This document shows, piece by piece, positions 12,879 to 61,526 of a stretch of 64,000 nt of DNA. Under the pieces are notes generated by a model. That model did no database searches. It saw only the letters and a list, made by a program, of their open reading frames with translations, and had not been told where the DNA came from. The stretch is taken from contig CBDCFN010000016.1 in assembly GCA_965216315.1 (NCBI GenBank), forward strand, positions 1,792,001 through 1,856,000. The letters run 5' to 3'. A program made the position numbers and the translations under genes. This DNA comes from a bacterium. Its GTDB lineage: Bacteria > UBA10199 > 2-02-FULL-50-16 > JAJFLM01. How positions within the stretch are numbered: position 1 is the stretch's first letter; every line of letters starts with the position of its first letter.

Positions 12879-12894
12879 TGGCATTATCTTTGCA
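12879..12894 (+). promoter_or_regulatory. sigma54 promoter of giant gene A
   Basis: TGGCATTATCTTTGCA (GG-N10-GC) after an AT-rich tract. Confidence 0.7.
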
Positions 12895-12946
12895 TTTGTA
12901 AACAGCATCACTCCGGGTGCGACCGGTGATTATTGAGGAGTAATGC

Positions 12947-15900
12947 ATGGGTGATCATCCCAAGATAGAAAAGCAGGTTCAGGAAATATTGGCAGGTGCG
13001 AACAATCCGCCTCCAGCCATCCACCCACGCCTGCTCAAGGAGATCCCACCGGAAGTAATCGACGACACGCACTCGGTTCGCATCACCGCGGACGGTTTCG
13101 AACTGACCCCAGTGAATGCCGAGCCTATGCCTCCCGAGATGGCAGCCTGTCTCCAGCAACCGAATCAAACTGCAAGACTCGACTGTCTTTTTTCACCATC
13201 TACATACCAAACCCCTGATGTCGACACGTGCCTGGCCATGCCCGACCCGAATGCTTCGGTTAATTGTCTCTTCGGTCCAGGCCTGAGTTTATTTACACCG
13301 ACAAGCACCAGCGCCACAACCATCGCAACCCCAGTCGCACCGACTGAAGAGGCTTCGGAAGTCGACAAGGCATTGCATGAACTCGCCACTGCGGACACCG
13401 ACGAAAAACGCAAATTTGCAGCCAAAAAGGCCTTGGCTGCCGCGAAAAAAAGTCCGAACGCTGAGGTATTGGCCGTGCCGATGGTTACTGCCGAGATCGC
13501 TGCGATCAATGGAAAATATTTAGAAGCCGCCAAGCAGTACGCGCAGCTCTCCGCTTCGCTGCAAGTGCTCGCGGCGACGAATAAAGAAATTCAACCTCAC
13601 GTCGACACCGTTGAAAAACGACGCCGTGGCGTTCTCGCCGCCGGGGCCGCCGTCGCGGTCGCCCAGATCAAGTATGCCGAATCCCCGGAAGCAGGATTAC
13701 GCTTGCAAAAACAGGCGACGGACTGCGCCGATCAATTGTATCTCGCTGAACCGACCGAGAAAAATCTCCAGCTCCTGCTCGCCACGTATGCCCAGGTCGG
13801 TCTGGATGTCCGCGAGGGGCGCCGCCGCATGGCCGCCAATGACTATCGTATCAATGCCCTCACGTTGGGTACCTTTGATCCGAAGCTGGACCCCACCGGG
13901 GAAAGCAATCCCGCTCCTGACAATGATCCTTTCAATTCCAAAAGCATCTTGGGTCCCGACATCAACGACATCGATCACTTCGGCTTCAAGGCCGAACGCT
14001 CCAAGGCGGATACGATCGCCGAGCTGCAGCAAACCAACAAGGAACTCAAGGGCATCGTCGATGAAACCGAACAACATATTCTTAGTCTCATCGCCCGGGC
14101 GCATCCAAACGATCCGTTTGCCTCCAATGTCCAAACGGCCACCGCGCATGTCGTCATGGGCAACAACCCAGCCGCGATGAAAAACCTGCAGGTCGCCCGC
14201 ACACTCTTCAAAGATAAGAGCGTCGAGCACACGCCTGACAATAAAGTGACCTATATCACCCTGCTCCACCGCATGGTGGATATCGCCGGGACGAAGACGG
14301 CCCTCAAGGAAGAAGTCTTGCTCGAAGCCCGCCAAGCAATTGATGAAATGATCAAGTCGCATCCCAAAGTCGCCTTGACCCTGCGTCTCGAGAACATGGA
14401 GCTGCTGGGCCAAGTTCGCGTCGATAAAGCAGCGCGCAAACTCAATGACAAATCCTTAAGTGATGATGACCGCAAAAAAGCCGTCGACAACTATCACCGG
14501 GCCCTGTCACGCAAACATGAAAACATCTTGATGTATTGCAAGCAAGTCTTGCCAATGACGCAGGATCCCGAAGCCCGCAAAGTTCTCATCGGCGGCATCG
14601 CACGTGCCGACGCCGGGCTGCTCGAGGCTCAACTCGATCGCAGCATGACAATTTATCTCAACGGCAACGAAGACCTCGGCAAGGGCTATGCCCAAGTCGA
14701 TATGGATTCGTTTCATCGGCGCATGGCGGAACTGCAGCAGCAGAATCCGACAGTTGATCTCAGCGAGGCCTTGAGCCGCGGGATGTTGGCCCAAGCGCAT
14801 TTTCAATTCCGCACCGGGCAGATCGAAGAGTCGGTTAAGAACCTGCGCAAAATCGTCAACGATCATCCGAAGTCAACCGCGGCTAACATGGTCCGCAGTA
14901 AAGGCGGTTGGGCGCATAAGTACAGTATTGTTACGGACAAGGGTGAATTTAATCCGAACATCGGCACCGAAAGCTGGACGGCCGGCACCAAGGAATTACT
15001 GGGCAAACTCAATAAAAAACCCGGCCGTGCGATGTTGGCTGCCACCGGCGGTTCGATCGTCGGCTGGGGCGCCGGGATGATCTTCGCCCCGGAAATCACC
15101 GGCCCCCTGTTAATCGCCGGTGCGGTCGGTGGGTTTCTTATCGATCGCACGGTTCTCGTCGCCCAAGAGTGGTCCCAAATCTCCGCGGCCTACAATACGG
15201 GAATCTCGACGGTCAGTACCGAAGAAGCGGCCCGCGAAGGCGGCATCTTCGCCCTGCAACTGTTCAGCATGTTCGTCGGCGGGGCGGCCGGTGGTGTTGC
15301 CGAACGCGCGGTCCTCGCGGGTGGAACGCGTCTGGCCCGTTCAATGGCCATGCGCGGGATTACCTCGTCGCCGTGGATGCGCGCGACCGGGGCCTTCGCG
15401 TTGCGTGAGGCCTCTTATGTGGCCAATGCCTATGCCTTCCATGAAACGTCTAATTTAACGACGCAGGCCATCGGAACGGCGGTTGGTCTCGATATCCCCC
15501 AACCCGACTCGAGTCACAACGATGATGTGATCTCGTCTTGGCTCTTCGTCCGCGGCTTTGCCAAGGCGATGAAGATGAACCTCGGTGCCAAGTTTGTCCC
15601 CGGTGAGAGCTTCGGCGCGAAGCTGGCGCAGGGTTCGATCAACATGGGCGTGGGCTTGGGCATCGTGCATACGGCCAAGGCCCTGCGCGAATGGGACCTG
15701 CGCCACCTCGATCCCGACACTCTGGCACGTTCGGCGTTTGATCTCTTGCTCATGCACCACGGAAACAAGGCACTTGGTTCCGTCATTCCGATGTCCGGGA
15801 TTGAAAAGATGAGTAAGGACCTCGAAACGATGACAAAGAAAAATATGCGCGACGCGGCGGCGGCGGTTAAATTTAAACAAGATACCGGGCTTTCGCTACG

Positions 15901-18900
15901 ACAAGCAGTGGGCCTGGGTTCGAACCCTCTCGCCGCACTTCTCCCGGTTCTCATGTACGGCCTACCCATTGTTCCAGGAAAGGGAACAAGTAGTAGAAAG
16001 GCCGAGTCCAAACCAGAAAAGAAAGCGGATCCGGAAGCAACGAATCCCGGACACACGGAAGCAAGAAACCCAGGCGCTAGAGAGGATACTAGGACCAAGG
16101 CAGGTAGAGGAACCAATCCGGGCGTCGACACAAGAAAAGTCGCCAACCTGGATCCTACTTCATTCCTTGCCGAACAGCTCCGCAAGAATGCGTCCACTGA
16201 CTCTGACCAATCGAAAGACACTCGTTCAGAAGAGCACTTGTACGTCGCGGCTTTCATCGAATATTATAATCAGCCCGCACGCATTGAAACGCTAAAAGCA
16301 CTCGGTCAACGAGAAGGTGATGTGGGCCGGAGCGCACGACGTTTCCATGATACATTGATGGACCTTCACATCGACATAGCCGAATACAACCGACTTGCCG
16401 CTGAAAACGTCGATAAAAAGGATCCGGCTGTCACCGAAAAAATGGAAAAGCTCTGGAAGCACAAGATTCTCCGCATGGTCAATCCACGGAAGAACACGCG
16501 TCTGGGTCATGACGGAAATAAATTCGGCGCAGGCGAGCTGGAGCAGCATGACTATAATCAAATAGAAACCGCTTACGCGAATAAACAACAAGCTCTTAAT
16601 AGCGACCTACGCGGCCTCTTCACGGTTCTTGCCATCCTCGAAGTCAAGGCCAACGCCGAGGCTAATAACAGCGGCAAGATGCCCGAGATGGGCTACAAAG
16701 TTTCTTATCAACGCCCTGAAGACCTGGCCCATGTCAACTTTGACCTGAATAATCTCAGCGAAAGTTTTTCCAAGTTATCCGCCCATGAGCTCGTTCAACT
16801 CAATATCCGTGCCAGCAGCCATGAGGCCGCACAGCGCATCGTTGAGACGTTTCGTAACGCCGGATATGAGGTCGTGTCGCATCCCGGGCAAAAAATTAAT
16901 TATAAAGTCAAGGTCCCTTACACGCACAAGATAGGCGGCGTGGAAATACAAGGGACGCATACGGTTGGGCTCAGGCTGGCCGTCGAACCTGCACCCCTCG
17001 GAGCTAAAACCCGACTCTCTCCCGCCGAGACCGCCTCACACGGTTTTGAACTGGCCTGGAACAATAAAAACTTCTGGTCGGAGACCGCTATTCCCGTCCT
17101 TCATAACGGCAAAGTCATTATTTTCAAGATGCGCCCGGGCCTCCCGGAGCCAACGGGTAAGTTTACAACCCTTGCTTCGGAAATCAATGAAACGATTACC
17201 GATCCAGTCGCCAAAGAGCGCCTCCTCAACATGGTCACGGCCCTCCATGGCCTCCATGAACGCCTGCCGCAAGGGGCCAATAAGACCAAGATTGAAACGG
17301 CGATCGATGAATCACGGACCGCACTCCTCAAGAACGGTGCCCGCACGGAGAGTTTAGCTGCCGTATGGTTGACGCTGGGCACTGCTTTGGCCGCATCAGC
17401 GCCGAAACTTCCGCACGTAGCAAGACACTCCACGGAAATGCGCGTCGACCTTCATCTCCCGAAGACCGATTATGACCACCATGTTGCCCAGAATAGTTGG
17501 AAATACACATTACCCGTGCTGCAACGCATGCCCAAGCGGGTGAGACAGTATATTGAATTGGCGACCGCTCCTTATTACGTCGATGGCATGAGCGAACCTA
17601 TCGTTCCGGATGCGCAGAAGACGATTGACTTGGTGACTCACATCGGAGTCGAAAAATTTGATTCCATTTTAAAGGCCGTCAAAAACAACGAACCTGCCCG
17701 CGCCAATATCGACACCTTGCTCAACTATGCGCTCGACACCACGAATTCCGAGAGAAACGCTCACGTCAAAGATTTCATCAACAAGGCATCGATTCATCAA
17801 ATCTTGCTTCTCGTCACCTATCCCGGTAAGAAAAATGTCGTCGCGCAGATCGCCGAAAAGGGTTATGTCGACATACTCAGCGGAGACCCCGCGACCCATG
17901 TCCCTCGCATCGAAAAGATGACCGACACTGCGCTTCGTGATGTACTTCTGGCATTAACGGCACAACGCATGTTTCAACAACATAAGGACAACCCTAAAGC
18001 AACGACGCCTGAAGGCATGGCTTTGCTGCTTAACTTTGGCATTGAACCCGACACGCATTTTCGCTTTCCCTGGAACGCCGTAGATGTAATTGACCGCTCA
18101 AAGCTCTATTTCCGCATCAAGACAGAGCGCAGGGCCTTCCGCAAACAGCTTGGCAAAGCCATTGAAGGCAAGGAAACCGAACTGGATGCGTTGACTGATA
18201 AAATTTGGGAACTCATCCTCATCCAGGACTATAAGGACACCCACCTTCCTTACACTCCGCATGGCTGGAAGCACACCCTCGATGTCGTCAAGGAACAACG
18301 TAAAATTTATAATGGGTCTCCCGAACTCCAAAAAGCCTTGATCGGACAGTTTGGTTCCGAGGCCAAGGCCCTTGCCGTCCTCGATATCGTCGCCATGATG
18401 CACGATGTGGGTTACGGAGCCCTTAAGCCGGGGGAATCCAAGGGAATTCATGCGATCCGTAGCGGTGAACTCTGGAAGGCCCAAATTGCCGACCACGCCA
18501 AGAAAACCCTCGATCTCAATGACAAGCAAATTGAAGATATTTTCTTGGCCATTCAACGCCATGGCGCCGACAAAAAGGGTAAAGGCGGCTACATGGAGGC
18601 CAACTTAGACAACCCTCTCCTCTTTGTCATTCGATTGGCGGACAATCTTGATTCAAGTAAGTCACGGCTCCGTAACATTCAGACACACCCACTTTTTATT
18701 GAGGGTATGAAAGAGATGAGAGAATTCGCTAATGAAAATCCCGATGTCGTCAACAACAAGAAAGAAATGAAGGCCGCGTTACAGAAGATTCGTTTGAGTT
18801 ACGAAAGAAAATTTGAAACGAATATGAACCCCAATGATGCCAAATTAGCCAAAGAACTTTTGGACCGCATGGACCATCTGAGTTGGCCTCACTTTAAGGG

Positions 18901-19210
18901 CTGTGAAAAAGTTTCAACGGTCCACATCACCGAAAAGGAAGGTCAGATGGTCGTAACTTTCGAAATCGCCGGCTTGGCTAATTCAGGCACGGTCACCGAA
19001 CAGCTCAGTGGGAAGACCATGGAAGTGGATGCCGCGCTCTATCAGCTGTGGCGCGCGATCGTCTCGGCCGAATCCCTCGACTACAATGGCCAGAAGATCA
19101 AGTTTAAATACGTCGAACTCCACCCCAGCAATCCGCATAACGGAGACGTAACCGAATTTGCCGGAGACGGTCCCAAGTCCTATCGCCTGCCGCTTGGAGA
19201 GATTCAATAG
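12947..19210 (+). CDS. Giant multidomain protein A (helical/TPR-like, hydrophobic Gly-rich core, C-terminal HD-domain phosphohydrolase)
   Basis: 2087-aa ORF, gaggag RBS; YTPHGWKH...MHDVGY...HAIRS...RHG...RLADNLD HD motif set. Confidence 0.85.
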   Translation: MGDHPKIEKQVQEILAGANNPPPAIHPRLLKEIPPEVIDDTHSVRITADGFELTPVNAEPMPPEMAACLQQPNQTARLDCLFSPSTYQTPDVDTCLAMPDPNASVNCLFGPGLSLFTPTSTSATTIATPVAPTEEASEVDKALHELATADTDEKRKFAAKKALAAAKKSPNAEVLAVPMVTAEIAAINGKYLEAAKQYAQLSASLQVLAATNKEIQPHVDTVEKRRRGVLAAGAAVAVAQIKYAESPEAGLRLQKQATDCADQLYLAEPTEKNLQLLLATYAQVGLDVREGRRRMAANDYRINALTLGTFDPKLDPTGESNPAPDNDPFNSKSILGPDINDIDHFGFKAERSKADTIAELQQTNKELKGIVDETEQHILSLIARAHPNDPFASNVQTATAHVVMGNNPAAMKNLQVARTLFKDKSVEHTPDNKVTYITLLHRMVDIAGTKTALKEEVLLEARQAIDEMIKSHPKVALTLRLENMELLGQVRVDKAARKLNDKSLSDDDRKKAVDNYHRALSRKHENILMYCKQVLPMTQDPEARKVLIGGIARADAGLLEAQLDRSMTIYLNGNEDLGKGYAQVDMDSFHRRMAELQQQNPTVDLSEALSRGMLAQAHFQFRTGQIEESVKNLRKIVNDHPKSTAANMVRSKGGWAHKYSIVTDKGEFNPNIGTESWTAGTKELLGKLNKKPGRAMLAATGGSIVGWGAGMIFAPEITGPLLIAGAVGGFLIDRTVLVAQEWSQISAAYNTGISTVSTEEAAREGGIFALQLFSMFVGGAAGGVAERAVLAGGTRLARSMAMRGITSSPWMRATGAFALREASYVANAYAFHETSNLTTQAIGTAVGLDIPQPDSSHNDDVISSWLFVRGFAKAMKMNLGAKFVPGESFGAKLAQGSINMGVGLGIVHTAKALREWDLRHLDPDTLARSAFDLLLMHHGNKALGSVIPMSGIEKMSKDLETMTKKNMRDAAAAVKFKQDTGLSLRQAVGLGSNPLAALLPVLMYGLPIVPGKGTSSRKAESKPEKKADPEATNPGHTEARNPGAREDTRTKAGRGTNPGVDTRKVANLDPTSFLAEQLRKNASTDSDQSKDTRSEEHLYVAAFIEYYNQPARIETLKALGQREGDVGRSARRFHDTLMDLHIDIAEYNRLAAENVDKKDPAVTEKMEKLWKHKILRMVNPRKNTRLGHDGNKFGAGELEQHDYNQIETAYANKQQALNSDLRGLFTVLAILEVKANAEANNSGKMPEMGYKVSYQRPEDLAHVNFDLNNLSESFSKLSAHELVQLNIRASSHEAAQRIVETFRNAGYEVVSHPGQKINYKVKVPYTHKIGGVEIQGTHTVGLRLAVEPAPLGAKTRLSPAETASHGFELAWNNKNFWSETAIPVLHNGKVIIFKMRPGLPEPTGKFTTLASEINETITDPVAKERLLNMVTALHGLHERLPQGANKTKIETAIDESRTALLKNGARTESLAAVWLTLGTALAASAPKLPHVARHSTEMRVDLHLPKTDYDHHVAQNSWKYTLPVLQRMPKRVRQYIELATAPYYVDGMSEPIVPDAQKTIDLVTHIGVEKFDSILKAVKNNEPARANIDTLLNYALDTTNSERNAHVKDFINKASIHQILLLVTYPGKKNVVAQIAEKGYVDILSGDPATHVPRIEKMTDTALRDVLLALTAQRMFQQHKDNPKATTPEGMALLLNFGIEPDTHFRFPWNAVDVIDRSKLYFRIKTERRAFRKQLGKAIEGKETELDALTDKIWELILIQDYKDTHLPYTPHGWKHTLDVVKEQRKIYNGSPELQKALIGQFGSEAKALAVLDIVAMMHDVGYGALKPGESKGIHAIRSGELWKAQIADHAKKTLDLNDKQIEDIFLAIQRHGADKKGKGGYMEANLDNPLLFVIRLADNLDSSKSRLRNIQTHPLFIEGMKEMREFANENPDVVNNKKEMKAALQKIRLSYERKFETNMNPNDAKLAKELLDRMDHLSWPHFKGCEKVSTVHITEKEGQMVVTFEIAGLANSGTVTEQLSGKTMEVDAALYQLWRAIVSAESLDYNGQKIKFKYVELHPSNPHNGDVTEFAGDGPKSYRLPLGEIQ

Positions 19211-19367
19211 CGACGACACAGCGCGTTAAATTCGAGGTGGACAGAAGTCTCCAGCAGTGGGGCCTTTGCTTACTAATATTATGTTTTTTTAAATTGAGTA
19301 AACAAAGGATTTTAATATTTATGTAATAAATTCATCTATTTATATAAATAATACTGTATACTTATAT

Positions 19368-19383
19368 TGGCATATACATTGCA
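19368..19383 (+). promoter_or_regulatory. sigma54 promoter of giant gene B
   Basis: TGGCATATACATTGCA (GG-N10-GC), followed by tgtaaacag...gggtgcg.ccg as upstream of gene A. Confidence 0.7.
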
Positions 19384-19473
19384 TCTGTAAACAGTAGAGG
19401 CGGGGTGCGTCCGTCCTGGAAATTGTCATGAACACCACGGAAACAAAGACAACCAGTAGAGGGGGTAATTGCC

Positions 19474-22400
19474 ATGGCACCGCCTAGCGCCCTGGTCGCC
19501 CTGTTCGGCCCCCTCGCCCCGGTCCTTTTCACCACAGAAACGGCCGAAACCACCGCCGCCACGGATCCGATTGCCAAGGATTCGTCTTTCTTGGATCGAT
19601 ACCTTGAGGCAGCTAAATCCAAGCTTCTCATCGATCAGGCCCTCGGAACGCCCGGCAATACGTTCAGCCTGACGATTAAAAAATACAAAAATGACGGTTT
19701 CGCATACGACCAAGAAGCCGCGACTTTTTATGTCAACGAGGCCCAACACGCAGCCATGCAGGAGGATTTCAAATTAGCACGCCGCTATCTGCGCAAGGCT
19801 GAATCGCACAATAGCGGATTGATTGATAAAATGGTCTTGGGCGGCCTCATGAAAGACAGCGTTATTATGGGCGGTCTCTTCGAAAACAAACAAAAAGAGC
19901 TTGTCGCCGGCTGGATCAATACCGCCAAACAAAATATCCAAACCCTTGAACGTGAGTATTGCAAAGACCTGATCGATGAAGGCCGGAGTCACTTCCAGTC
20001 CGGCGATTATGCTAAGGCGCGCTCGGTATATACTGAGTCTATCGAACACGATTCACGTAATCTGGAGACACGCAAGCTCCGCATCGAAGCCAATCAGAAA
20101 TTACTCGCAGCGGATGAAGACGATCAAACGGCCAAGCTCGAGCTGGAACAGGATATGGCAATGGTCCAGGCCCTTGAGTTCGATACGGCCGCGGCCAGCA
20201 TCGACAAGATCGGCAAGGATTTAGCAAAGTTTCATGATGCCGACCTAAAAACGAAACAAGAAATGATCAGCGGTCTGGAAGCCATGGCGCAGCAGTATTC
20301 GATGCTGGGCACGGTCCAATTCGATAATAAGTCGGATACGAAGTTCGTTCGTAAAAAGTTAAGCGACTTGAGCGCCAAGACCTATCGCATACTCGAGGAC
20401 TTCAGCCAAGCCGACAAGGATCCGGCCATCAACGGCCTGGCCAAAACCTACCGTGGCCGGCGCTATCTCGCCAAAGGCAAGATCGATAAGGCGCTCAAAG
20501 TTTTTAAAGAACATCGCAGTGACAATATGGCGGCTGCCGGCTTCACCGACGAAGCGGCTTACACCGCTCACCTCGACAAGGCCGCGAGTGACGTCGAGGA
20601 GCTCTTCAAGGCCGGCAAAGCGGAAGAAGCGCAGAAGCTAATCGAGACGCTGCCGAATGCCGTCTTTGCCACCCATGGTATCATCAAACAGATCGAGACC
20701 GACAAATTGCGCCGATTAAACGTCTACGCCTTGGAGGCATGGCGTTCCTTCATCATCGAAGGGGAAGCTGTTGAATTCGACCAAGCCAAGGGTTGGGTCG
20801 CTTCTTTTGTCATGTTCGGAGAAACACTCGCCGGTAGCGAAACAATTGACGACCGTCTCGCGAAACGCTGGGGACTGGAAAAAGACCTTCACAGCGCCGT
20901 TACGAAAAAAATTGCCGACGGCGAATGCAATACAGTTAAAGAAGCACTTCTAGATATCAAAGCGAATGGGCCAGAAAAATTTCATGCCCGTTCTAAAGAA
21001 TTGCTCGACAATGAATTTCAGCATAGCAACGATGCCAGTTTTGTCCTCCCGCACATCATTGGCTATGCCTCGGCACTAAACTACGATGAAACGGCACCCA
21101 GCATTCTCGGCAACGTACGGCCGTCACAGTATCTGATGGACGAGGCCGCCCGTATCAATGACCAATTCATGGTCCCGAATACCCCGGGGGCCATCTATGC
21201 CATGATCCAGGCCAGTAACACCGATGAGTCCACCAAAGACGCTGCCGGTGATGCAATCGAAAAGCTGGACGACGCCAAGGGATTTAGTGATTCACTCGTC
21301 GCCTTCTGGCACTCGGAAAGCCTGACGAGTTTGGCCCTTGACATAGTAACCTTTAAAGCCGCAGCGCGCGTTGGCGCCAACGTATTTCTGAATACCGAAA
21401 AAGCGCTGCGAGCCGGCGGCTACAGTGCCCGGGCCACAATGTATCTGTCGGAGGGAGCCGGTCTCGTGGCGGAAAATACGATTCTCACGCCTGGCATGCT
21501 GGTCAAAGCCGGGGCTTTTACCGATACCCGCCGCGTCTATTCGCCGTCGCACATGGCCAAAGAATACGGCGCCAATCTCGTCATGTTATTTTGTACCAAG
21601 GGACTCGCTTCACGCGGAGCCGCGATGCTTCCGCGCGTCGCCCGCGCGGCCGGCTGGGTCGTTGAGGGAACAACGGAACTCAGCCGCTTTGGGAAACTGT
21701 TTACCTGGGCCGGGGGACACGCGATCGGCTTTCGCGGCATGCTCGCTTCCAGTGTGGCCAACCACTACCTCGGCCTGCGCCAGATGGCCTCCGACAACTT
21801 CGGTGGCGTCATCGCCGCGGAAATGTACAACTATGTTAAGTTTGCTGCGGCTCAACGCGCGATTGGATCCAAGGGTTCAAAAATCGAGCATCAAGTCGCG
21901 AGCCGGAAGGCCTCCCTTGAATCCCAGATGGCGGTTGAAAAGCTGGGCTACAAAGTCGTTGAGTATACGCCGCAAGGCGAAGCCGTCTTCAACGATGCGA
22001 CGGCTCAAAAACTTTATCATCAGTTCGCCTACAACCTGATTCAAAAGCCGGGCTTCAGCCCGGATAAGATGGCCAAGCTGGCACTCGAAGCTACCAAATC
22101 CGGCAACTATGCAAAGTTCAATAAATACTGCCAACGTTATGGACTCAGGGCCAAGGTCAACGAAAGCGCTCCCGACAAACCTGTCGAATCGCTCGAGCAA
22201 CCAACCTTTCATGAGCAATTAACGGCCAAGGACGAGGCAGCCCGACCGCTTCCTTTGCCGGAAGCAACGCGACAGTTTCTCGAAGCGGTCAAGGATAACC
22301 AAAACATCACCGTCCTCGACATCGCGGCAGATGGAAAAGTCACATACAAGACCCGGAGTTATTTGCTCCCTGATGTCTATACGGATACTGTTTCCACTTA

Positions 22401-23697
22401 TCTTCCCGGCATCGGTGAAGCGCAAGGTTATGCACCGGGATCGCTGCCGGCAGGTGCCCGTGTTGTAATGCCGGAGAAAAGCACTAATCCGCAGCTACCG
22501 CCGCAAGTTTTAAGACAGGCAAGACCCACCGAGACAAAAAACAAGGCCCCGGAAGGTACGATCGTCATGGATAAGCCCGGTAATGTAACGAATGAAGGAA
22601 CGGTTGTCATGGATAAGCCCGGCAACGTCACCAATAAGGGAACTGTTATCATAGACACGCCTGGCAAAGCGGCACTTGAAGCGGCGGGAGCAACACGTGT
22701 CGAAAAAGGACCCAACACGACCCAGCATGTGGATATCAGTCGCGAGACGACCCAACTGCATCATGCGCGCTATCGCCTCGCGCTGCTCGAAATAGAGAAC
22801 AGTTCCGTCGAACATGCGCCCTACTTTCTGCGCAAGGCCTTGCAGGATCTCGGACTCATGGCCGCCCAATCAACTCTCCCTGGTTCCACTAAGGCGCCCA
22901 TCACAATGAATTTAGTCCGCGCCATGAAAGGCGGGACCGAATATGTCGTCGGCGTCAATATCGGCCTGCCCAAGAACAATCGAGGGGCCAAAGCCGAGAT
23001 CTTGAGTACTCTCAAAAAGCATAATATCAACTACGACGCCGAATCCGGCACGATTGAAGTGCCGTTGACGGTCAGAGAAGTAGGAACGTCGGGCCCTATC
23101 AAAATAACCATCCCCTTTGAATTCGGCACCGATCACTATTCACAACCGGCCGCCCCACTCAGTCCGGTCGTCGCCGCCGCACTTGGCTATAAGTTGGCCT
23201 GGAATAATTCTCGTTATTGGACGGATACAAATCCGGCACTCGTCAGAATTCCGATTCTCGATGGCCAGAATATTTCCGTCTTTCAATTCAAGCCTGATTC
23301 GATCGAGATGAGAGGTCCCTTTAAGTCCTTGTCGGATAACGTCCGGAGCCAGGTCACCAACCAGGAAGCACAGACACGCACTGTCAACATGGTACAGGCC
23401 CTTCAGGCAGTCCATGAAAGCTTGCCCGCCGGTGACGGAAGGCGTCCCGTTATTCTGCGCACGGTTGCGGAACTCAATCGTTATCTAAGTGACAGTGGTT
23501 CAAGCGGTGTCAGCCTCTCTTATCTGTGGTCACGGATCAGTTACGGCATGCGCAAAGGAATGACCTTTAATCCGCATTTTCAAGGGCTTGCGGCACTGAA
23601 GCAATCGATTCGGACGGGCACTGAGCAGTCGGCCAAAGGACAGGAACTTCGCTATCAAAATGCCCCGGAAGACGCCAAGAAAGCCGTTGGTCAATAA
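19474..23697 (+). CDS. Giant multidomain protein B (TPR-like, hydrophobic core, Thr-repeat linker)
   Basis: 1407-aa ORF; TPR-like GRSHFQSGDYAKARSVYTESIEHD; N-half paralogous to C, C-end paralogous to an internal part of A. Confidence 0.85.
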   Translation: MAPPSALVALFGPLAPVLFTTETAETTAATDPIAKDSSFLDRYLEAAKSKLLIDQALGTPGNTFSLTIKKYKNDGFAYDQEAATFYVNEAQHAAMQEDFKLARRYLRKAESHNSGLIDKMVLGGLMKDSVIMGGLFENKQKELVAGWINTAKQNIQTLEREYCKDLIDEGRSHFQSGDYAKARSVYTESIEHDSRNLETRKLRIEANQKLLAADEDDQTAKLELEQDMAMVQALEFDTAAASIDKIGKDLAKFHDADLKTKQEMISGLEAMAQQYSMLGTVQFDNKSDTKFVRKKLSDLSAKTYRILEDFSQADKDPAINGLAKTYRGRRYLAKGKIDKALKVFKEHRSDNMAAAGFTDEAAYTAHLDKAASDVEELFKAGKAEEAQKLIETLPNAVFATHGIIKQIETDKLRRLNVYALEAWRSFIIEGEAVEFDQAKGWVASFVMFGETLAGSETIDDRLAKRWGLEKDLHSAVTKKIADGECNTVKEALLDIKANGPEKFHARSKELLDNEFQHSNDASFVLPHIIGYASALNYDETAPSILGNVRPSQYLMDEAARINDQFMVPNTPGAIYAMIQASNTDESTKDAAGDAIEKLDDAKGFSDSLVAFWHSESLTSLALDIVTFKAAARVGANVFLNTEKALRAGGYSARATMYLSEGAGLVAENTILTPGMLVKAGAFTDTRRVYSPSHMAKEYGANLVMLFCTKGLASRGAAMLPRVARAAGWVVEGTTELSRFGKLFTWAGGHAIGFRGMLASSVANHYLGLRQMASDNFGGVIAAEMYNYVKFAAAQRAIGSKGSKIEHQVASRKASLESQMAVEKLGYKVVEYTPQGEAVFNDATAQKLYHQFAYNLIQKPGFSPDKMAKLALEATKSGNYAKFNKYCQRYGLRAKVNESAPDKPVESLEQPTFHEQLTAKDEAARPLPLPEATRQFLEAVKDNQNITVLDIAADGKVTYKTRSYLLPDVYTDTVSTYLPGIGEAQGYAPGSLPAGARVVMPEKSTNPQLPPQVLRQARPTETKNKAPEGTIVMDKPGNVTNEGTVVMDKPGNVTNKGTVIIDTPGKAALEAAGATRVEKGPNTTQHVDISRETTQLHHARYRLALLEIENSSVEHAPYFLRKALQDLGLMAAQSTLPGSTKAPITMNLVRAMKGGTEYVVGVNIGLPKNNRGAKAEILSTLKKHNINYDAESGTIEVPLTVREVGTSGPIKITIPFEFGTDHYSQPAAPLSPVVAAALGYKLAWNNSRYWTDTNPALVRIPILDGQNISVFQFKPDSIEMRGPFKSLSDNVRSQVTNQEAQTRTVNMVQALQAVHESLPAGDGRRPVILRTVAELNRYLSDSGSSGVSLSYLWSRISYGMRKGMTFNPHFQGLAALKQSIRTGTEQSAKGQELRYQNAPEDAKKAVGQ
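22552..22668 (+). repeat. 42-bp (14-aa) tandem repeat, about 2.8 copies, in gene B
   Basis: EGTIVMDKPGNVTN / EGTVVMDKPGNVTN / KGTVIIDTPGK. Confidence 0.85.
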
Positions 23698-24323: not shown

Positions 24324-24521
24324 CGTGCCGCTAAATCGGCGCTCCGACTCCGAAAGTTGCGGTCCGTCGCCGCGGACGCCATTAAAAAGAGCTTACTTGT
24401 GTATACAGCGACAAGCAAATCTCACAAGTTGTGCTGACATTGAGCGCGCAAGTTGTGCGCTCACGCATCAGGCCTTTTCATTTAATTAAATGATTTTAAT
24501 AAGTTAAAGGCTCCCTCCTCT

Positions 24522-24537
24522 TGGCACGACCGTTGCA
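24522..24537 (+). promoter_or_regulatory. sigma54 promoter of giant gene C
   Basis: TGGCACGACCGTTGCA, a consensus match; gaggag RBS then ATG at 24563. Confidence 0.8.
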
Positions 24538-43757: not shown

Positions 43758-43770
43758 AGAACACTCCTAG

Positions 43771-56106: not shown

Positions 56107-57027
56107 ATGTTAATGGCAACCTCACCCATATTGGCAGCGGGCCAGCTTACGAGCGCATGTCGTCCCCTCGCAATCCTGCAAGAGTGGAGCCAAAGCCTCC
56201 AACAACTCGGTCCCGACTTACAGGACTCCGATGGCCTGAAAAATGCGCAGCGGCTTGTCCCGTCACTGCAGGCGCAAGGCTTGACGAAGCTCGCAAGACG
56301 CGTCAATGAACGCGGCGCACCCGCTCTGCTCGAACTCAGCCCGCAGTCACGTTTGGCAATTTTCTCAGACATCGCAACGACGCTCAGTCCTCACCATCAG
56401 CTCGACTTACGCAACGAAAGCACCCGCATCAACAACGCACGCGGCATCAAACGACCGATAAGTCTCTTAAGCTTTGGTCTCTTGGCAAAAGACAGTTCAC
56501 CGGAGGCGATATCTATTCTCGATTATCATTTTCCTTATGGGCACGGGATCGGCTTAATGTTGGAACCTGCTTTCGGAGGAGCGCAAGAAACGGGCCATCA
56601 GCTGTACTATGCGGCAGACACTCAACTTGACCCGGAAGGTTATGGAGTTCCTCGTGGCTTTACAGCACTCGATGGAACGAATGCTCTCGAAATCGGCGGA
56701 CTAAGGGTCATCGGCCTGGACAAAGCTTTGCACAAAAATCCACCACGCAGTCAAACGCCGGTTGATATTGTAATAACCAGCTCTCTCTTAAAAGAGCATG
56801 ACGACTGGAGTCTGCGCGTCATTGAGGCGCTTTCCCCGACACTCTTCTTACATCATACCCGCGAAGACACGGTTCATGCCATTCATCACGAGACCCGAAT
56901 ACTGGGACTGGGACCCGCCATGTATCGCTATGCCCACATCGTCTTCAATCCTCACTCGCCGGACGGACCCCTGCAAGTCGCCATCCATGCAACCGAGTCA
57001 GGCGAAGAACTATACGGATACTACTGA
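56107..57027 (+). CDS. Hypothetical protein
   Basis: 306-aa ORF preceded by GAAAC-N14-GCAGATAA. Confidence 0.6.
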   Translation: MLMATSPILAAGQLTSACRPLAILQEWSQSLQQLGPDLQDSDGLKNAQRLVPSLQAQGLTKLARRVNERGAPALLELSPQSRLAIFSDIATTLSPHHQLDLRNESTRINNARGIKRPISLLSFGLLAKDSSPEAISILDYHFPYGHGIGLMLEPAFGGAQETGHQLYYAADTQLDPEGYGVPRGFTALDGTNALEIGGLRVIGLDKALHKNPPRSQTPVDIVITSSLLKEHDDWSLRVIEALSPTLFLHHTREDTVHAIHHETRILGLGPAMYRYAHIVFNPHSPDGPLQVAIHATESGEELYGYY

Positions 57028-60000
57028 CCGACAGCCATCTCCGCGGGAAGCTCACCCGCTTCTAAATGGATTTCAAGCGTGAGTTCCATCCGACGTAATT
57101 CCGGACGAATCTTTCTAACCCGTGAGTTGACCGGAAAATCAACCATCAGTACCGGACGCCCATTCTGTGTCGTCTGAAAAACATAATAGCCTTGCGCTTT
57201 TATCCCCTCAATCAGACCGGTCAACTCGGCGGGATTTTTGACAAAGACATCAACCCCTAAGAAACTTTCCGGGCTTAACCAGAGGAAACTTTTCGCGGGA
57301 TTTGCCGGGTCGACACTGCCATGTATTTCCTGAATCGGTCGATAGTTCCATTCAAATTCCACTCCGCCCTTACTCCGTAATGAGTGACCAATTAAAAAGA
57401 CATCCATCGGCTCTGCTGCCCGTCGCGCAAACTGCAAGGAATTCATATATCGAATATCAACTTGATTATAGAGTGACGGTCTCAATCGGGTGGAGATATA
57501 GGCCTCTAATAAGGTCGGCACGTCTAGGGGCATCTCCCCCGCCTGCATGCGCCTGACGGCTTCGCCTATGCCACGATGTTGGATAGCAGAAAGATCCATC
57601 GCGGAGAGTTCACTGAAAATCTCCTGTGCCAAGGCCGCATCCTGTTTCATGAACTCCGGAGAGCTTTCGTCGAGACGAGTCAATTCACGCATGCGTTGTC
57701 CCCAGGACTCGGTCTTCTTGACCTGCCCCAGAAAAGTGCGAGCTTCGAGCTGGTAGTCGGCCACCTGCTCCGGGGTCCAATTGGTCTCTTGCTTCAAGGC
57801 TTCCGGTGTCATCTTAACAACGCGTTCAAGTTCAGCCCGAATCTCGGGATCCGCAAAATAGTCGTTGAAGGCATTCGCATCGCGGCGCCAGTCGCCGGCG
57901 GCCTGTTGAAGCTTGAGGGTTGGTATTTCGGCTAGTTTTTCACTGAGCGTCACTGCCGTCTCAGAAGTCCCCGACCTTGAAGGATCGGGCGGCGGCGGTG
58001 CGTCATTCGCGGCAACCTGCTTTTTGTTTCCTTTCCCTTCAGCAAAGGTAACATCTTCGGTAGAGGCCGGCACAGGCTCAACGATTTTACCCTCGGCTTT
58101 TGTCACCTCATCAGCACCACTTGACGGTGGTGTCTTCGCAACTTTGCCTTCGACTTTTGTCACTTCTGCAGGCTTCAGGCTTTCAGGCGCCGCTGGAGCC
58201 ATCGGCTTAACCACCTTGCCTTCGACAAACGTCACTTCATCAGGGGCAGCCGTTTCAACAATCGGTTTCGGGCGATCAACCACCGTTACTTCAGGAGAAT
58301 CTCCACCGTCCTTGATTGATACATCTTCTTTAATCTGTTGCGTCCGCTTCCAAATCACTTGTTCTGTCTTGGAATAACCACCGCTACGAACCTGATTATT
58401 CACCCAACGCCCGTAATGCATGCCCAGCAAATTGCGAATCGTCTCGCCGGCAAGACGCTCCGAAAATGTGTATGGACTGTCATGATCCATCACGATGTCA
58501 CCAGCATAGGTCATGGCCGTCGCCACACTTGTCTGCGTCGATAACTCACCAGCAAAATTAAACACGCGCCCTTCTGGATTCATCCTTAAGAAACGAGCGA
58601 CCTTTGGATTCACAACTTTCCAGCCCAAATGACCGCAATGGAAGGCCCGACTCATAATAGTTGCAAAGCCCGCGTTCTTCCAGCTGAAATCCCGTTGTTG
58701 CAACAGCGATGATGTCCCTTCGATCATAAGACCTTCAGTCGCGGAACCGGCCCATACAGTGACAAAACCCGCCCCAAAACGTCGCACCCCGGTCTGGGCA
58801 CTGAGCTTTAAGGCACTACCGACACCGACACGTACGAGTTGGCCGGCTCCCATTGCCAAGGGCAAAGTCACTGCCGTAATCACAACTTCGTCGACGATTG
58901 CATCGATACTATCATCCGAAAGATTCCAAAATTGATCGAGTGGATCTTTCATATCTTCGTAGATGGCCCACGCATCGGCCGCGATCGGATCATTCACTCG
59001 CATCTCACCCGATTCGTAATCGGCTTGAAGGCTCGCAAAAGCGATTTTGTGAAGTCGTCTCTCGATTTCAAGTTCGACGGACACATCAACCATCTGTTCA
59101 ATTTCAGCTTCAGTCGGTTGACCACTTGGAAATCGCTCGGCGTATTGACTTGGATTGGCTTCTTTCGCCTCCGCCAGACTGTCCATGACCTTGCTGTGAA
59201 AATCATTCCGGTCGCCTTCGACGGCATCCCGCACGTCTTGGCTCACTGTGTCCGGAATAACCGCTAGAGCCTCCTGCAAAGGCTCCGCAAACAACTGTTC
59301 GAGGATTTGACCAGCAACGGCATAAGAGCCGTTGCGATGACGTACTTGTTGCGCGACGGACAGAAGATGCTTACGCTTGCCATCCGGTGTCTTCATCGCT
59401 TCGAGACCTTCACGCGTCTCCAGCGAATACAATGTCAAAAAGTCTTTGTCACGAACGCCAATATTCGTCCAATGCCCATACTGACCGAAAAGGCCTTCAT
59501 AACGCAGCGGATTCTCGGCATGCGAAACATTCCCTGCAGCCGTTAATTTGCCGAATTCTTTCTGGATATCATCGCGATGTCTTAAGATTTGATAATCTCT
59601 ATTGAGCTGCATACTCGAATGAATACGCACACCACCGTCCCGCTCGATTAAAACAACCCGCTCGCCCTCGGCGGGTGGGAAATAATACGCCTTATGTGTA
59701 TCCGTCCGAATAATCCCACCTTCAGATCCAATCGAAACACGCACGATGCGTGGTTGATTACGACCACTCGAAGTCCGCAACATCCCACCGGAAACCGTGA
59801 CGTTCGTCACCTCAGGGTGTGTTGCCGAAGTATCGGCAAACCAATCGCGCAGGAAGGTAAGAGCTACACTACGTTCTTCCTTGTCCTGTGTCGATCCGTA
59901 CGATGGCGCCTCGTAAATCAGGTTGACATCCCATCCTCTTTGCACGACGGGATTCGTTGCAAACTGTTCTTGAAGCCGTTGATGCTCACTCTGCAGATAC

Positions 60001-61484
60001 GACATTGCTTCATCAAGCGTATCCGCGTGCCCGCTTTCGACTGCCTGCCTGAGTAACCCAATCAAGCCGCTATTCGCCTGAGCGGTTTTCTTATCATAAT
60101 AATTAAGTTCCATGCGTCCTAACCGTTGGGTCAGGAGTGAGCCATTTGCTTCATCGAGTCGATCCAATGCTATCAACGTGTAGTCACGCAATTCCGCACG
60201 CACCACCTCGCGCATGGCCAATAATTCAGGATCATCGGTCGACTCGGTCGCGGTCTTAAAATCCATCATATAGAGTCGTGCCTGTGGGATATTATTGTCT
60301 TCAATCAGCGCCAATCGACTCTGATAGAATAAAGTGCGCGCCGTATCGCCATTCGCTTGCGCCGTTTCAAGTCGACTGCGATTCATCGCGATGAGACCAA
60401 TCTGCTGCAGCTCCCCGAGAATGCGGAGTTTGTCACGATCTTCGAGCACATCGAATTCCGGCGTCATACTCATTGAATGCATGTGAACCAGATCGGAATG
60501 AAAGATTACATAAGCCGCATATGCATGAGTATTTTCCTCGGTCAAGAAGCCATTATCCGCCAATGTCGCCGTCTCATTGATAACAACTTCCAAAGAAAAA
60601 TCCTGCGTATAACTCATTAATAAAGGAGATAATTCCCGTGCAGCGGCTTCATCCCCCAATAAACGAAACACCTCAATTTCCTGGGATAATAGGAGCACCG
60701 TATCCGCCCTATTACCGCTCGTTTCCGCCAGCTTTCTTTGTATTGTCAATTCAGTTCGAATTTCTTCAAGGCGGCAGGGATAGGCATCCGCTTCCGCCCT
60801 AAAACTTGGTTCGAGTTGTGCAGCCATCCCATAGTCATAGAATGCTTCTTCATAGTGGCCCAGCATATGGTGTAATCGTGCGCGATAAAGATAGGCTTCG
60901 GCATCATTCGGATCATTCTGGATCTGACCATTCATGAAATCGATCGCGTAGGAGGTGTGCTTAAAAGCACTGGAATGCCCCGTCGCCTGTTTGGTTGCCG
61001 CACGCAAGAAGAATATCCGTCGCGTCAACTGAGGATCCAAAATTCTTTCATCTGTTTTAAAATTCTTGTAGGCCACTTTAAAGACCTTAAAGGCTTCTCG
61101 ATAGGTTTCTTTCGCTTGAACTGCATCACCGGCATCAAGCTGCCTTTCAACCGCGGCCAACCGATCATTGAGATAGGCAACTATACTCTCAGGATCATCC
61201 ATGTTGGGAGAAGCATAGATAGCAGTCGGTTGCGTGAAGAGTTGTGTGCCCGGAAGACTCGTAAAAAAGCCGAGAATAGTCGACGACGCCGGATCCGTGC
61301 TGCAATAGCCCCCCTCGTTCGCCTCGGGTTGCGACACGCTTTCTGGCGCACAACTGCCCGCATCCACCTCTCCGTACAGGAGAGCCGAACTAGAAGACGG
61401 GTCAGACCCGCACTGATTTATGGCTTCAAATGGCAGATCTGCAGACGCAGCTCCGCACACACATAGGGTATTAGTACCGCACAC
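57021..61484 (-). CDS. Giant multidomain protein D (TPR, hydrophobic core, Thr repeats, C-terminal module shared with A)
   Basis: TPR AEAYLYRARLHHMLGHYEEAFYDYGMAAQLEP; start reassigned to GTG 61484 (ggagg RBS, downstream of the sigma54 site). Confidence 0.85.
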   Translation of the reverse strand: MCGTNTLCVCGAASADLPFEAINQCGSDPSSSSALLYGEVDAGSCAPESVSQPEANEGGYCSTDPASSTILGFFTSLPGTQLFTQPTAIYASPNMDDPESIVAYLNDRLAAVERQLDAGDAVQAKETYREAFKVFKVAYKNFKTDERILDPQLTRRIFFLRAATKQATGHSSAFKHTSYAIDFMNGQIQNDPNDAEAYLYRARLHHMLGHYEEAFYDYGMAAQLEPSFRAEADAYPCRLEEIRTELTIQRKLAETSGNRADTVLLLSQEIEVFRLLGDEAAARELSPLLMSYTQDFSLEVVINETATLADNGFLTEENTHAYAAYVIFHSDLVHMHSMSMTPEFDVLEDRDKLRILGELQQIGLIAMNRSRLETAQANGDTARTLFYQSRLALIEDNNIPQARLYMMDFKTATESTDDPELLAMREVVRAELRDYTLIALDRLDEANGSLLTQRLGRMELNYYDKKTAQANSGLIGLLRQAVESGHADTLDEAMSYLQSEHQRLQEQFATNPVVQRGWDVNLIYEAPSYGSTQDKEERSVALTFLRDWFADTSATHPEVTNVTVSGGMLRTSSGRNQPRIVRVSIGSEGGIIRTDTHKAYYFPPAEGERVVLIERDGGVRIHSSMQLNRDYQILRHRDDIQKEFGKLTAAGNVSHAENPLRYEGLFGQYGHWTNIGVRDKDFLTLYSLETREGLEAMKTPDGKRKHLLSVAQQVRHRNGSYAVAGQILEQLFAEPLQEALAVIPDTVSQDVRDAVEGDRNDFHSKVMDSLAEAKEANPSQYAERFPSGQPTEAEIEQMVDVSVELEIERRLHKIAFASLQADYESGEMRVNDPIAADAWAIYEDMKDPLDQFWNLSDDSIDAIVDEVVITAVTLPLAMGAGQLVRVGVGSALKLSAQTGVRRFGAGFVTVWAGSATEGLMIEGTSSLLQQRDFSWKNAGFATIMSRAFHCGHLGWKVVNPKVARFLRMNPEGRVFNFAGELSTQTSVATAMTYAGDIVMDHDSPYTFSERLAGETIRNLLGMHYGRWVNNQVRSGGYSKTEQVIWKRTQQIKEDVSIKDGGDSPEVTVVDRPKPIVETAAPDEVTFVEGKVVKPMAPAAPESLKPAEVTKVEGKVAKTPPSSGADEVTKAEGKIVEPVPASTEDVTFAEGKGNKKQVAANDAPPPPDPSRSGTSETAVTLSEKLAEIPTLKLQQAAGDWRRDANAFNDYFADPEIRAELERVVKMTPEALKQETNWTPEQVADYQLEARTFLGQVKKTESWGQRMRELTRLDESSPEFMKQDAALAQEIFSELSAMDLSAIQHRGIGEAVRRMQAGEMPLDVPTLLEAYISTRLRPSLYNQVDIRYMNSLQFARRAAEPMDVFLIGHSLRSKGGVEFEWNYRPIQEIHGSVDPANPAKSFLWLSPESFLGVDVFVKNPAELTGLIEGIKAQGYYVFQTTQNGRPVLMVDFPVNSRVRKIRPELRRMELTLEIHLEAGELPAEMAVGQ
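58030..58292 (-). repeat. Five imperfect EVTxxEGK peptide repeats in gene D
   Basis: EVTVVDRP, EVTFVEGK, EVTKVEGK, EVTKAEGK, DVTFAEGK. Confidence 0.75.
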
Positions 61485-61510
61485 GCACCTACTCCTCCAC
61501 CCCAATAGAG

Positions 61511-61526
61511 AGCAAAGACCGTGCCA
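61511..61526 (-). promoter_or_regulatory. sigma54 promoter of giant gene D
   Basis: Minus strand TGGCACGGTCTTTGCT; downstream tattggg...gaggagt as in the gene C leader. Confidence 0.8.

Follow-up and report, generated by a model that had tools for sequence, protein, structure and literature searches.

Four giant genes, here called A to D, lie within the 64,000-nucleotide stretch of bacterial DNA that was analysed (the window), and they raise the question of how their transcription is initiated. According to the original prediction, a GG-N10-GC site of the sigma-54 type lies directly upstream of each gene. These sites were found with exactly the positions and letters that had been claimed (Table 1), and we consider each element likely to be a genuine RpoN (sigma-54) promoter of its own giant gene. 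As a prediction, sigma-54 promoters before the giant genes are well supported; the kind of promoter is known and ordinary, and the gene set that it precedes is unusual.

Table 1. Positions of the giant genes, of their promoter elements and of the neighbouring sequence features in the window.
Feature	Position	Strand	Details
Giant gene A	12947..19210	+	2087 aa; ATG 12947
Giant gene B	19474..23697	+	1407 aa; ATG 19474
Giant gene C	24563..29701	+	1712 aa; starts at ATG 24563, not at the open-frame TTG 24521
Giant gene D	57021..61484	-	1487 aa; starts at GTG 61484, not at TTG 61559
Promoter core of A	12879..12894	+	TGGCATTATCTTTGCA (TGGCAT-N5-TTGCA); sigma-54-type, 1 mismatch to TGGCAC-N5-TTGCW
Promoter core of B	19368..19383	+	TGGCATATACATTGCA (TGGCAT-N5-TTGCA); sigma-54-type, 1 mismatch
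Promoter core of C	24522..24537	+	TGGCACGACCGTTGCA (TGGCACG-N4-TTGCA); sigma-54-type, 0 mismatches
Promoter core of D	61511..61526	-	TGGCACGGTCTTTGCT (TGGCACGG-N3-TTGCT); sigma-54-type, 0 mismatches
Predicted transcription start sites	about 12905 (A), 19394 (B), 24548 (C), 61500(-) (D)		about 12 nt past the GC
A, -12 element to start codon	12895..12946	+	TGTAAACAG at about -8 to +1, then GGGTGCGACCG
A, Shine-Dalgarno sequence	12935-12941	+	GAGGAGT
B, -12 element to start codon	19384..19473	+	TGTAAACAG, then GGGTGCGTCCG
B, Shine-Dalgarno sequence	about 19459-19465	+	G-rich
AT-rich tract before A promoter	12770..12878	+	up to 89% AT
AT-rich tract before B promoter	19261..19367	+	up to 89% AT
Inverted repeat in A tract	12797-12819 / 12835-12857		23 nt, AT-rich
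IHF-like site in A tract	12841-12853		TTTCAAATAATTA; 1 mismatch
IHF-like site before C	24483..24495	-	AATCATTTAATTA, in a short AT-rich tract; 1 mismatch
IHF-like site before D promoter	61554..61566	-	AATCAAATTGTTA; exact match to the IHF consensus
GTAAACA in A and B tracts	12810 (A), 19298 (B)		
Dyad before C	24441..24463		TGAGCGCGCAA-G-TTGTGCGCTCA; centre about 96 nt before the predicted start site
Repeat of part of the C dyad	24425		CAAGTTGTGC, recurring 24 nt upstream
Imperfect palindrome before D	61595..61626		around GTGATCAC; 18-nt arms, 72% complementary; centre about 110 nt before the predicted start

Sigma-54-type cores and gene starts

Mismatches were scored over the 11 specified positions of TGGCAC-N5-TTGCW with GG and GC fixed, and a scan for RpoN sites with this consensus recovered all four cores at zero or one mismatch. 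The spacing from GG to GC is exactly 10 nt at all five intergenic sites, namely those of A, B, C and D and a further one at 2105(-). All four cores face their giant gene, the distance from GC to the start codon being 53 nt in A, 91 nt in B, 26 nt in C and 27 nt in D, and a Shine-Dalgarno sequence precedes each of the four start codons. The corrected starts that had been proposed for C and D were borne out as well: each is preceded by GAGGAGT, and the resulting proteins have the lengths of identical deposited proteins. The starts of A and B likewise agree with deposited protein lengths.

Frequency and placement of the sites

The motif TGGCA-N6-TTGC occurs eight times in the window against an expectation of 0.63, a count reached in 0 of 100 shuffles. 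Perfect TGGCAC-N5-TTGCW sites number three, compared with a mean of 0.063 and a maximum of 1 in 300 shuffles. With one mismatch allowed there are seven sites (shuffle mean 1.47, sd 1.28); as the largest shuffle value is also seven, this raw count is less decisive than the placement of the sites. Such a site, in the right orientation and no more than 250 nt upstream, is present at 4 of 4 giant genes versus 2 of the 38 other window genes with readable upstream DNA (hypergeometric p ~1.3e-4, by our own arithmetic), and the motif is thus commoner before the giant genes than before others. The shuffle rate gives a chance expectation per gene of about 1.4e-3 (at most one mismatch, one orientation, within 120 nt), and four of four would therefore arise by chance with a probability of about 4e-12 (own arithmetic).

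If the sites were functionless chance matches in intergenic DNA, the count of seven would be their best argument, one of the 300 shuffles having reached it, but the placement and the excess of perfect sites both speak against such a reading, whose probability we regard as negligible. A chance origin of the four sites is excluded, being effectively refuted by counts and placement. The third perfect site, at 2105(-), lies in an intergenic gap and faces a small two-gene unit, which would fit a general use of sigma-54 by the organism. Two further sites with one mismatch, at 53525(-) and 56192(-), are about as many as expected by chance (1.47).

Giant proteins

Proteins A, B and C are built as mosaics, with modules in common between A and C, B and C, and A and B. 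In protein A, the N-terminal module, about 850 aa long, belongs to a rare family (34 matches among 1.84 billion representatives). Hydrophobic segments lie at about 709-785, one module of 140 aa is common to B, and the C-terminal module, about 590 aa long, carries an HD motif; this last module is common to C (55% identity), and a word-indexed search of 5.8 billion proteins returned four matches for it. Protein B contains one TPR repeat, and its N-terminal module of about 800 aa is shared with C at 32% identity. Protein D, for which one relative was found, likewise contains one TPR repeat, together with a hydrophobic segment at about 859-886. The four genes do not form one set of paralogs, as D is not detectably homologous to the other three: BLASTP of D against A, B and C detected no homology, and hhalign of D with P0011 gave a probability of 1.9% against B, C and P0009 and of 0.07% against the A/B module.

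With regard to the HD module, the residues H281, H285, H328-D329, H381 and D408 are invariant in all four aligned sequences. P0005 is a third paralog with this module, beside A and C. One relative, P0006, passes the Pfam HD family with 25.5 bits (cut-off 22), while A reaches at best 14.3 bits on Cas3_HD, below the cut-off of 23.1, and C matches nothing. Searches of the giant proteins against Pfam and NCBIfam returned single TPR repeats and sub-threshold HD hints only. The structure model of the HD module (pLDDT 77.6) matched HD folds weakly, with a best E of 0.016, and a profile search of PDB sequences with this module gave 0 matches. The predicted fold of the A/B module (pLDDT 61.9) was too low in confidence for a structure search, and the ESM Atlas held no usable matches for D or for residues 1-1115 of C. 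Convergent open reading frames overlap B and D at their 3' ends and are not related to one another.

Similarities between the leaders

The leaders had been described as related in pairs. The similarities between A and B and between C and D are real, and they lie mostly in the stretch from -12 to +1 and in the ribosome-binding site. With a start about 12 nt past the GC, TGTAAACAG in A and B and TATTGGG in C and D would fall at about -7 to +1, so that they would belong to the promoter and mostly not to the leader RNA. The arrangement TGTAAACAG-N(5-12)-GGGTGCGNCCG occurs in the window at A and B only (0 expected), and TATTGGG-N3-GAGGAGT at C and D only, even when two mismatches are allowed (0.34 expected). 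The GAGGAGT of C and D is the ribosome-binding site, and their predicted leaders measure about 15 and 16 nt, respectively. A conserved, structured 5' leader RNA was also considered and rejected: none of the four leaders folded better than its shuffles (z -0.77, -0.16, +0.41 and +1.18), and Rfam at gathering thresholds returned one tRNA only for the whole window and no match for the leaders.

Given that the value of 74% obtained with MAFFT for A and B is inflated by AT richness, in-register identity and shuffles were used instead. From -100 to -20, 44 of 80 positions are identical between A and B (p ~0.0009), as are 10 of 12 positions just past the -12 element (p ~0.0004). A BLAST comparison among the upstream regions linked A and B solely by the 16-nt TTGCATNTGTAAACAG (E 0.75). 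The promoter regions of A and B are related and were most likely copied together, and C and D follow a common, very compact layout of promoter, predicted leader of 15-16 nt and GAGGAGT.

Transcription units

Separate promoters are required for C and D, since the neighbour on the upstream side of each lies on the opposite strand. A and B are on the same strand, 263 nt apart, and the gap between them contains a single, weak terminator-like hairpin of 5 pairs (19247-19263); the number of terminator-like sites does not exceed the shuffle level (22 vs 19.2). Each of the four genes has its own sigma-54-type element, but no convincing terminator lies between A and B, and the earlier view of separate transcription is not supported for these two by the gap between them.

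This arrangement allows for a reading in which the sites are real, but A and B form one transcript from the A promoter, the B site being redundant or an internal copy produced by duplication, and the promoter likeness would then reflect duplication and not a shared programme. The short gap with its weak hairpin, the upstream likeness of A and B, which extends well past the core, and the construction of A, B and C from shared modules are all in its favour. We nevertheless consider it unlikely, as the B site equals the A site in quality and has its own AT tract and Shine-Dalgarno sequence, and as the best sites are those of C and D, where co-transcription from upstream is impossible. Moreover, D has the layout of C and yet is not its paralog, so duplication cannot explain the likeness between these two.

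AT-rich tracts and other upstream elements

Stretches of 80 nt with at least 80% AT occur in the window only at 12770-12904 and 19261-19396, where they abut the A and B sites; the AT-rich tracts upstream of C and D are shorter, about 35-40 nt. The IHF consensus used here is that of E. coli, WATCAANNNNTTR. With at most one mismatch to it, IHF-like sites lie upstream of A, C and D, at offsets from the TGGCA of -38, -39 and -40, respectively, and an exact match was found before D only among the four giant-gene promoters; no site at this threshold was present in the tract upstream of B. Over the window as a whole, the consensus shows no excess (3 vs 2.6 expected). Of the AT-rich, IHF-site-like tract that had been proposed for each gene, the AT richness is thus real throughout, and the likeness to IHF sites extends to A, C and D but not to B.

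No convincing activator site shared by all four genes emerged from a comparison of 10-mers and 12-mers on both strands between -260 and -5. The motif CAAnTTG was considered as a common site and rejected: five of its 25 copies lie upstream of A, C (two) and D (two), with none at B, it was picked post hoc, and it is not enriched in the window (25 vs 23.4 expected). The dyad upstream of C and the imperfect palindrome upstream of D are candidate activator-binding sites, each for its own gene only. In addition, two copies of GTAAACA flank the A site at a distance of 88-89 nt from each other, and the B site is flanked likewise. This heptamer occurs 12 times in the window against 5.0 expected, with 4 of the 12 copies around the A and B sites, and the pairs look like an operator pair.

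These pairs could also be taken to indicate that TGGCA-N6-TTGC is the site of another DNA-binding protein, or of an uncharacterised sigma factor of this lineage, and that the promoters are sigma-70-like and situated in the AT tracts. Such matches do exist in the tracts of A (TTGACA-16-AATTAT, 10/12, at 12780-12807) and B (TTTATA-18-TATATT, 9/12, at 19339-19368), where a second type of promoter may be present, and the use of RpoN by this organism is something that we infer. In contrast, the elements have the two-block sigma-54 consensus with its exact 10-nt spacing at all five intergenic sites, and TGGCA-N6-TTGC is not palindromic. Sigma-70-like matches are furthermore not found upstream of C or D, and in the two regions scanned they remain below the shuffle expectation (6 vs 9.0 and 5 vs 6.0). 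We regard this explanation as very improbable and retain that of sigma-54 promoters.

Proposed mode of activation

We infer sigma-54 use, activator dependence, looping, start-site positions and co-regulation. The sigma-54 RNA polymerase would bind the -24 TGGCA and the -12 TTGC as a closed complex, and transcription would start about 12 nt past the GC only once an AAA+ enhancer-binding activator, bound upstream, has remodelled this complex. The AT-rich upstream DNA may aid the formation of a DNA loop, either through intrinsic bending or through an IHF-like protein, which in A, C and D would sit some 58 nt ahead of the predicted start. Activator proteins probably induce the giant genes jointly. 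As sigma-54 promoters depend on activators, we propose that these genes would be silent by default and be induced by a signal; control of this kind, off unless activated, would point to a specific signal and a specific activator. If true, this would open a first way into the regulation of proteins with next to no relatives and without an assigned function.

In a scan of 54 ORFs of the window, none was found to encode RpoN, a sigma-54 activator domain (Sigma54_activat type) or IHF. A profile search of genome contigs with the alignment of the HD module identified three loci, all in other genomes. One of them (L003) is a 20-residue match, and the two others (L001 and L002) carry genes of at least 5,000 aa with 61-63% GC. 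Of these two genes, one lies immediately next to an ORF upstream of it, and the other extends past the end of its locus. No sigma-54 site with at most one mismatch was found in about 21 kb at each of these two loci, nor an activator domain among the neighbours of their giant genes. These two loci therefore lend no comparative support to conservation of the promoters, and both are too distant to be informative.

A broader interpretation, which we put forward tentatively and consider rather doubtful as a whole, is that the window displays a portion of a sigma-54 regulon dedicated to one kind of cargo. This cargo would be near-orphan proteins of giant size and mosaic build, from two or more unrelated families, silent in the small (~2.4 Mb) genome of an uncultivated lineage and fired by enhancer-binding activators on cue, for example upon contact with a host, a prey or a surface. 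Each of these proteins would combine helical parts resembling TPRs with a hydrophobic central portion and, at the C-terminus, exchangeable enzyme modules such as an HD-type hydrolase. Lineage-specific additions to the sigma-54 switch would then be the roughly 100-nt AT tracts, the GTAAACA pairs that flank the A and B promoters and the 15-16-nt leader of C and D.

Comparison with known sigma-54 systems

The nifH and Pu promoters are textbook examples of sigma-54 promoters with enhancer-binding proteins and IHF-assisted looping. As in canonical sigma-54 promoters, the -24 GG and the -12 GC are 10 nt apart and lie 26-91 nt before the start codon, and, as in the IHF-assisted ones, AT-rich or IHF-like DNA separates the core from putative dyads located some 100 nt upstream. 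The elements differ from the canonical ones in the very short predicted leaders of C and D (about 15 nt), in the tracts of about 100 nt and 85-89% AT that abut the -24 element in A and B, and in the conservation of TGTAAACAG across the predicted start site of these two genes. As the promoter class is a textbook one, the value of the prediction lies in annotation, i.e. starts, operon structure and probable regulon, and in the odd cargo rather than in a new mechanism.

In Chlamydia trachomatis, transcription under sigma-54 control is reported to be linked to type III secretion effectors and membrane reorganisation at the conversion to infectious forms (PMC7482065). It may be viewed as a precedent for the idea of stage-specific expression, by analogy only.

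A global RpoN regulon of Geobacter sulfurreducens has been predicted by the same kind of motif scan (PMC2725144). It covers flagella, pili, central metabolism and cytochromes and is backed by transcriptome data, whereas the present set consists of giant orphan proteins and is predicted from sequence. The same report gives the general sigma-54 consensus as mrNrYTGGCACG-N4-TTGCWNNw and that of Geobacter as TTGGCACGGTTTTTGCT (PMC2725144). The latter is almost the D site, which agrees with it at 15 of 17 positions by our own count.

Sigma-54-type sites upstream of the giant genes

This analysis found the same kind of candidate promoter core before each of the four giant genes, A, B, C and D, which are the only ORFs longer than 1,000 aa in the window. 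The four 16-mers lie on exactly the strands and at the coordinates of the original prediction (Table), and sigma-54 promoters are probably the best explanation for them, as a prediction from sequence. Sites were scored against TGGCAC-N5-TTGCW, with GG and GC held fixed. The cores of C and D and a fifth site show no mismatch, and those of A and B show one each, where the sixth position is T rather than C. TGGCA-N6-TTGC occurs 8 times in the window, compared with 0.63 expected, and 0 of 100 dinucleotide-preserving shuffles gave 8. Across 300 shuffles, the mean number of perfect sites was 0.063 (maximum 1; 3 observed) and that of sites with at most one mismatch 1.47 (sd 1.28, maximum 7; 7 observed). 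The latter count is not overwhelming, and it is the placement that decides. Upstream DNA was readable for 42 genes; a site with no more than one mismatch, facing the gene, lies within 250 nt upstream of 4/4 giant genes vs 2/38 others (hypergeometric p ~1.3e-4, our arithmetic). The two other genes are a 135-aa ORF and the aminotransferase gene. The leftover one-mismatch sites, 53525(-) inside atpB and 56192(-), are about as many as expected by chance.

Features of the window, with sigma-54-type cores and predicted transcription starts
Feature	Position	Strand	Core	Predicted start	GC to start codon (nt)	Details
Gene A	12947-19210	+	12879(+)	near 12905	53	2087 aa, same length as protein-collection entry
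Gene B	19474-23697	+	19368(+)	near 19394	91	1407 aa, same length as protein-collection entry
Gene C	24563 (ATG)-29701	+	24522(+)	near 24548	26	1712 aa, length of identical protein-collection entry
Gene D	61484 (GTG)-57021	-	61526(-)	near 61500(-)	27	1487 aa, length of identical protein-collection entry
Family-less ORF	1593-2000	-	2090-2105(-), TGGCACCTCATTTGCT		 	135 aa, 90 nt after the fifth site
Cro/C1-type HTH ORF	1324-1632	-				102 aa
Orphan ORF	ATG 34894		34963-34978(-), TGGCATGAATCTTGTA then AACA			281 aa, ~70 nt after the possible site
AT tract before A	12770-12904
AT tract before B	19261-19396
Overlap at 3' end of B	23691-23697					7 nt, with convergent 210-aa orphan ORF
Overlap at 3' end of D	57021-57027					7 nt, with convergent 306-aa orphan ORF
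Subtilase (Peptidase_S8)	61814-63406	+
nuoL/M/N	40750-45822
Three antiporter-like ORFs	35113-39888	-
Segment of approx. 49 nt	2280-2328, 2442-2490, 3412-3443					84-90% identity
Orphan ORFs at this repeat	2350-2844, 2889-3797

The candidate promoter elements agree with every sequence-level criterion for RpoN promoters given in PMC2725144. They also follow the order of the classical sigma-54 layout, namely the core, AT-rich or IHF-like DNA and a possible upstream dyad. As predicted promoters, the sites are a fresh instance of a well-known class; the moderate interest comes from the cargo, as the four giants, near-orphans that fall into two or more unrelated families, would carry the same kind of switch. 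The only papers found on sigma-54 together with giant genes concern engineered nitrogen-fixation polyproteins, which are not relevant here. No genes for RpoN, an activator or IHF were found among the 54 ORFs scanned in the 64-kb window. Separate transcription of B, the identity of an enhancer and stage specificity are points that we infer. A precedent for stage-specific expression is the sigma-54 regulon of Chlamydia (PMC7482065), but nothing links the organism of the window to such a life cycle, and the comparison would be an analogy only.

The fifth site is a perfect, intergenic match, and the 135-aa ORF behind it overlaps the HTH ORF in a toxin-antitoxin-like layout. The site TGGCATGAATCTTGTA follows an AT-rich stretch (35035-35132) and is similar to the promoters of A and B, except that GT replaces GC at -12; this could be either a sixth site that has degenerated or a chance match.

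Gene starts and other promoters

Predicted transcription starts were placed at the usual sigma-54 spacing from the GC. With the corrected starts proposed for C and D, the resulting lengths equal those of identical protein-collection entries; the open-frame TTG of C (24521) is just the TTG within cTTGGCAC. A Shine-Dalgarno sequence precedes each start codon; it reads GAGGAGT for A, C and D, and for B it is G-rich.

With regard to other promoters, sigma-70-like matches were not above shuffles (6 vs 9.0 and 5 vs 6.0). None was found before C or D; the AT tracts hold matches of 10/12 for A (12780-12807) and 9/12 for B (19339-19368). No convincing terminator was seen in the sequence between A and B, and read-through from A to B is therefore possible. 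The upstream neighbours of C and D lie on the opposite strand, so each of these two genes must have its own promoter.

Upstream DNA

The AT-rich, IHF-like tract predicted before each gene was recovered in part: all four upstream regions are AT-rich, and an IHF-like site with at most one mismatch is present in A, C and D. The AT tracts adjoining the A and B promoters contain the only 80-nt stretches with at least 80% AT in the 64 kb, and those before C and D are shorter. The IHF consensus searched was that of E. coli, and among the four promoters it occurs exactly before D only; across the window it is found 3 times vs 2.6 expected, without enrichment. The IHF-like sites of A, C and D lie at -38, -39 and -40 from TGGCA, centred ~58 nt before the predicted start, and upstream of B there is none even with one mismatch allowed. 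The common offset is a suggestive positional coincidence, noticed post hoc.

A k-mer comparison upstream of the four promoters gave no activator site common to all four. Upstream of C lies a dyad with 11-nt arms, TGAGCGCGCAA-G-TTGTGCGCTCA (centre ~-96), of which CAAGTTGTGC has a second copy 24 nt further upstream; D shows a looser dyad around GTGATCAC (centre ~-110), and A and B only AT-rich inverted repeats. Any activators that bind these regions would probably not be shared by all four genes. GTAAACA pairs occur at A (12810/12898) and B (19298/19387), 88 and 89 nt apart, with one copy in the AT tract and the other across the predicted start site. Such a pair could be a paired operator; the window holds 12 copies vs 5.0 expected, 4/12 of them at these two promoters.

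D and the subtilase gene are divergent, and the 329-nt gap between them holds the D promoter and dyad. It is conceivable that the subtilase is co-regulated with D, or processes D.

Paired leader similarity

The proposed relatedness in pairs, A with B and C with D, was confirmed, and the notion of a leader RNA element was not. TGTAAACAG-N(5-12)-GGGTGCGNCCG occurs in the window only at A and B (0 expected). In register, A and B are identical at 10/12 positions immediately downstream of the -12 element (p ~0.0004) and at 44/80 from -100 to -20 (p ~0.0009). TATTGGG-N3-GAGGAGT is restricted to C and D even at 2 mismatches (0.34 expected), GAGGAGT being the ribosome-binding site. TGTAAACAG and TATTGGG cover ~-8 to +1 relative to the predicted start, which is the stretch that melts when transcription initiates. 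Folding of the four leaders was in no case better than that of shuffles (z -0.77 to +1.18), and none matches Rfam. The similarities fit the description of related promoter-proximal DNA better than that of leader RNA elements.

The giant proteins and their relatives

Judged by alignment, A, B and C are mosaics of common modules: a C-terminal one of ~590 aa in A and C (55% identity), an N-terminal one of ~800 aa in B and C (32%) and one of ~140 aa in A and B (31%). D has no detectable homology to A, B or C (hhalign probabilities 1.9% and 0.07%), and the four giants are therefore not one paralog family. What all four have in common is a TPR-like repeat or a helical N-terminal region, together with a middle part that is hydrophobic or rich in Gly/Ala. 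The C-terminal module of A and C, of which P0005 is a third paralog, carries invariant H...HD...H...D residues, and a related metagenomic protein, P0006, passes Pfam HD. Because the HD-fold matches of the structural model of this module (pLDDT 77.6) are weak (best E 0.016), the module would be called HD-like and nothing beyond. Ahead of its HD module, P0006 also matches the Pfam HopA1 effector family (residues 256-347, E 2.2e-10), a match absent from the window's own proteins.

Members of these families are very rare: there are 4 matches to the HD-type module in a word-indexed set of 5.8 billion proteins, 1 outside relative of the B/C module and 1 relative of D. For the N-terminal module of A, 34 matches were found among 1.84 billion representatives, some of them 3,700-6,500 aa long. 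A genome-contig search with the HD-type module gave two real matches, in MAGs labelled STL-UBA1 and UBA10199-1, with genes of at least 5,000 aa and 61-63% GC. These loci contain no sigma-54 site with at most one mismatch, and no activator neighbours their giant genes. The only genome relatives found for this module (L001 863-16447 and L002 32-15172) are both followed by an opposite-strand ORF of ~910-924 aa and a squalene-hopene cyclase gene, and the loci are therefore syntenic.

Other content of the window

This piece of bacterial chromosome comes from a contig of 2,397,981 bp, has ~50% GC and contains ordinary housekeeping genes, among them tmk, holB, metG, atpI, atpB, a fragment of a class II-type ribonucleotide reductase, a class-III aminotransferase and a subtilase, besides one tRNA-Arg. 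The convergent orphan ORFs at the ends of B and D are mutually unrelated. The nuo operon is long, with extra antiporter-like subunits; of the three further antiporter-like ORFs downstream of nuoL/M/N, two match Proton_antipo_M clearly and one weakly, so that the number of antiporter-type subunits is unusual for a complex I operon. The repeated segment lies in and beside two orphan ORFs, one of which has a weak FG-GAP-like match.
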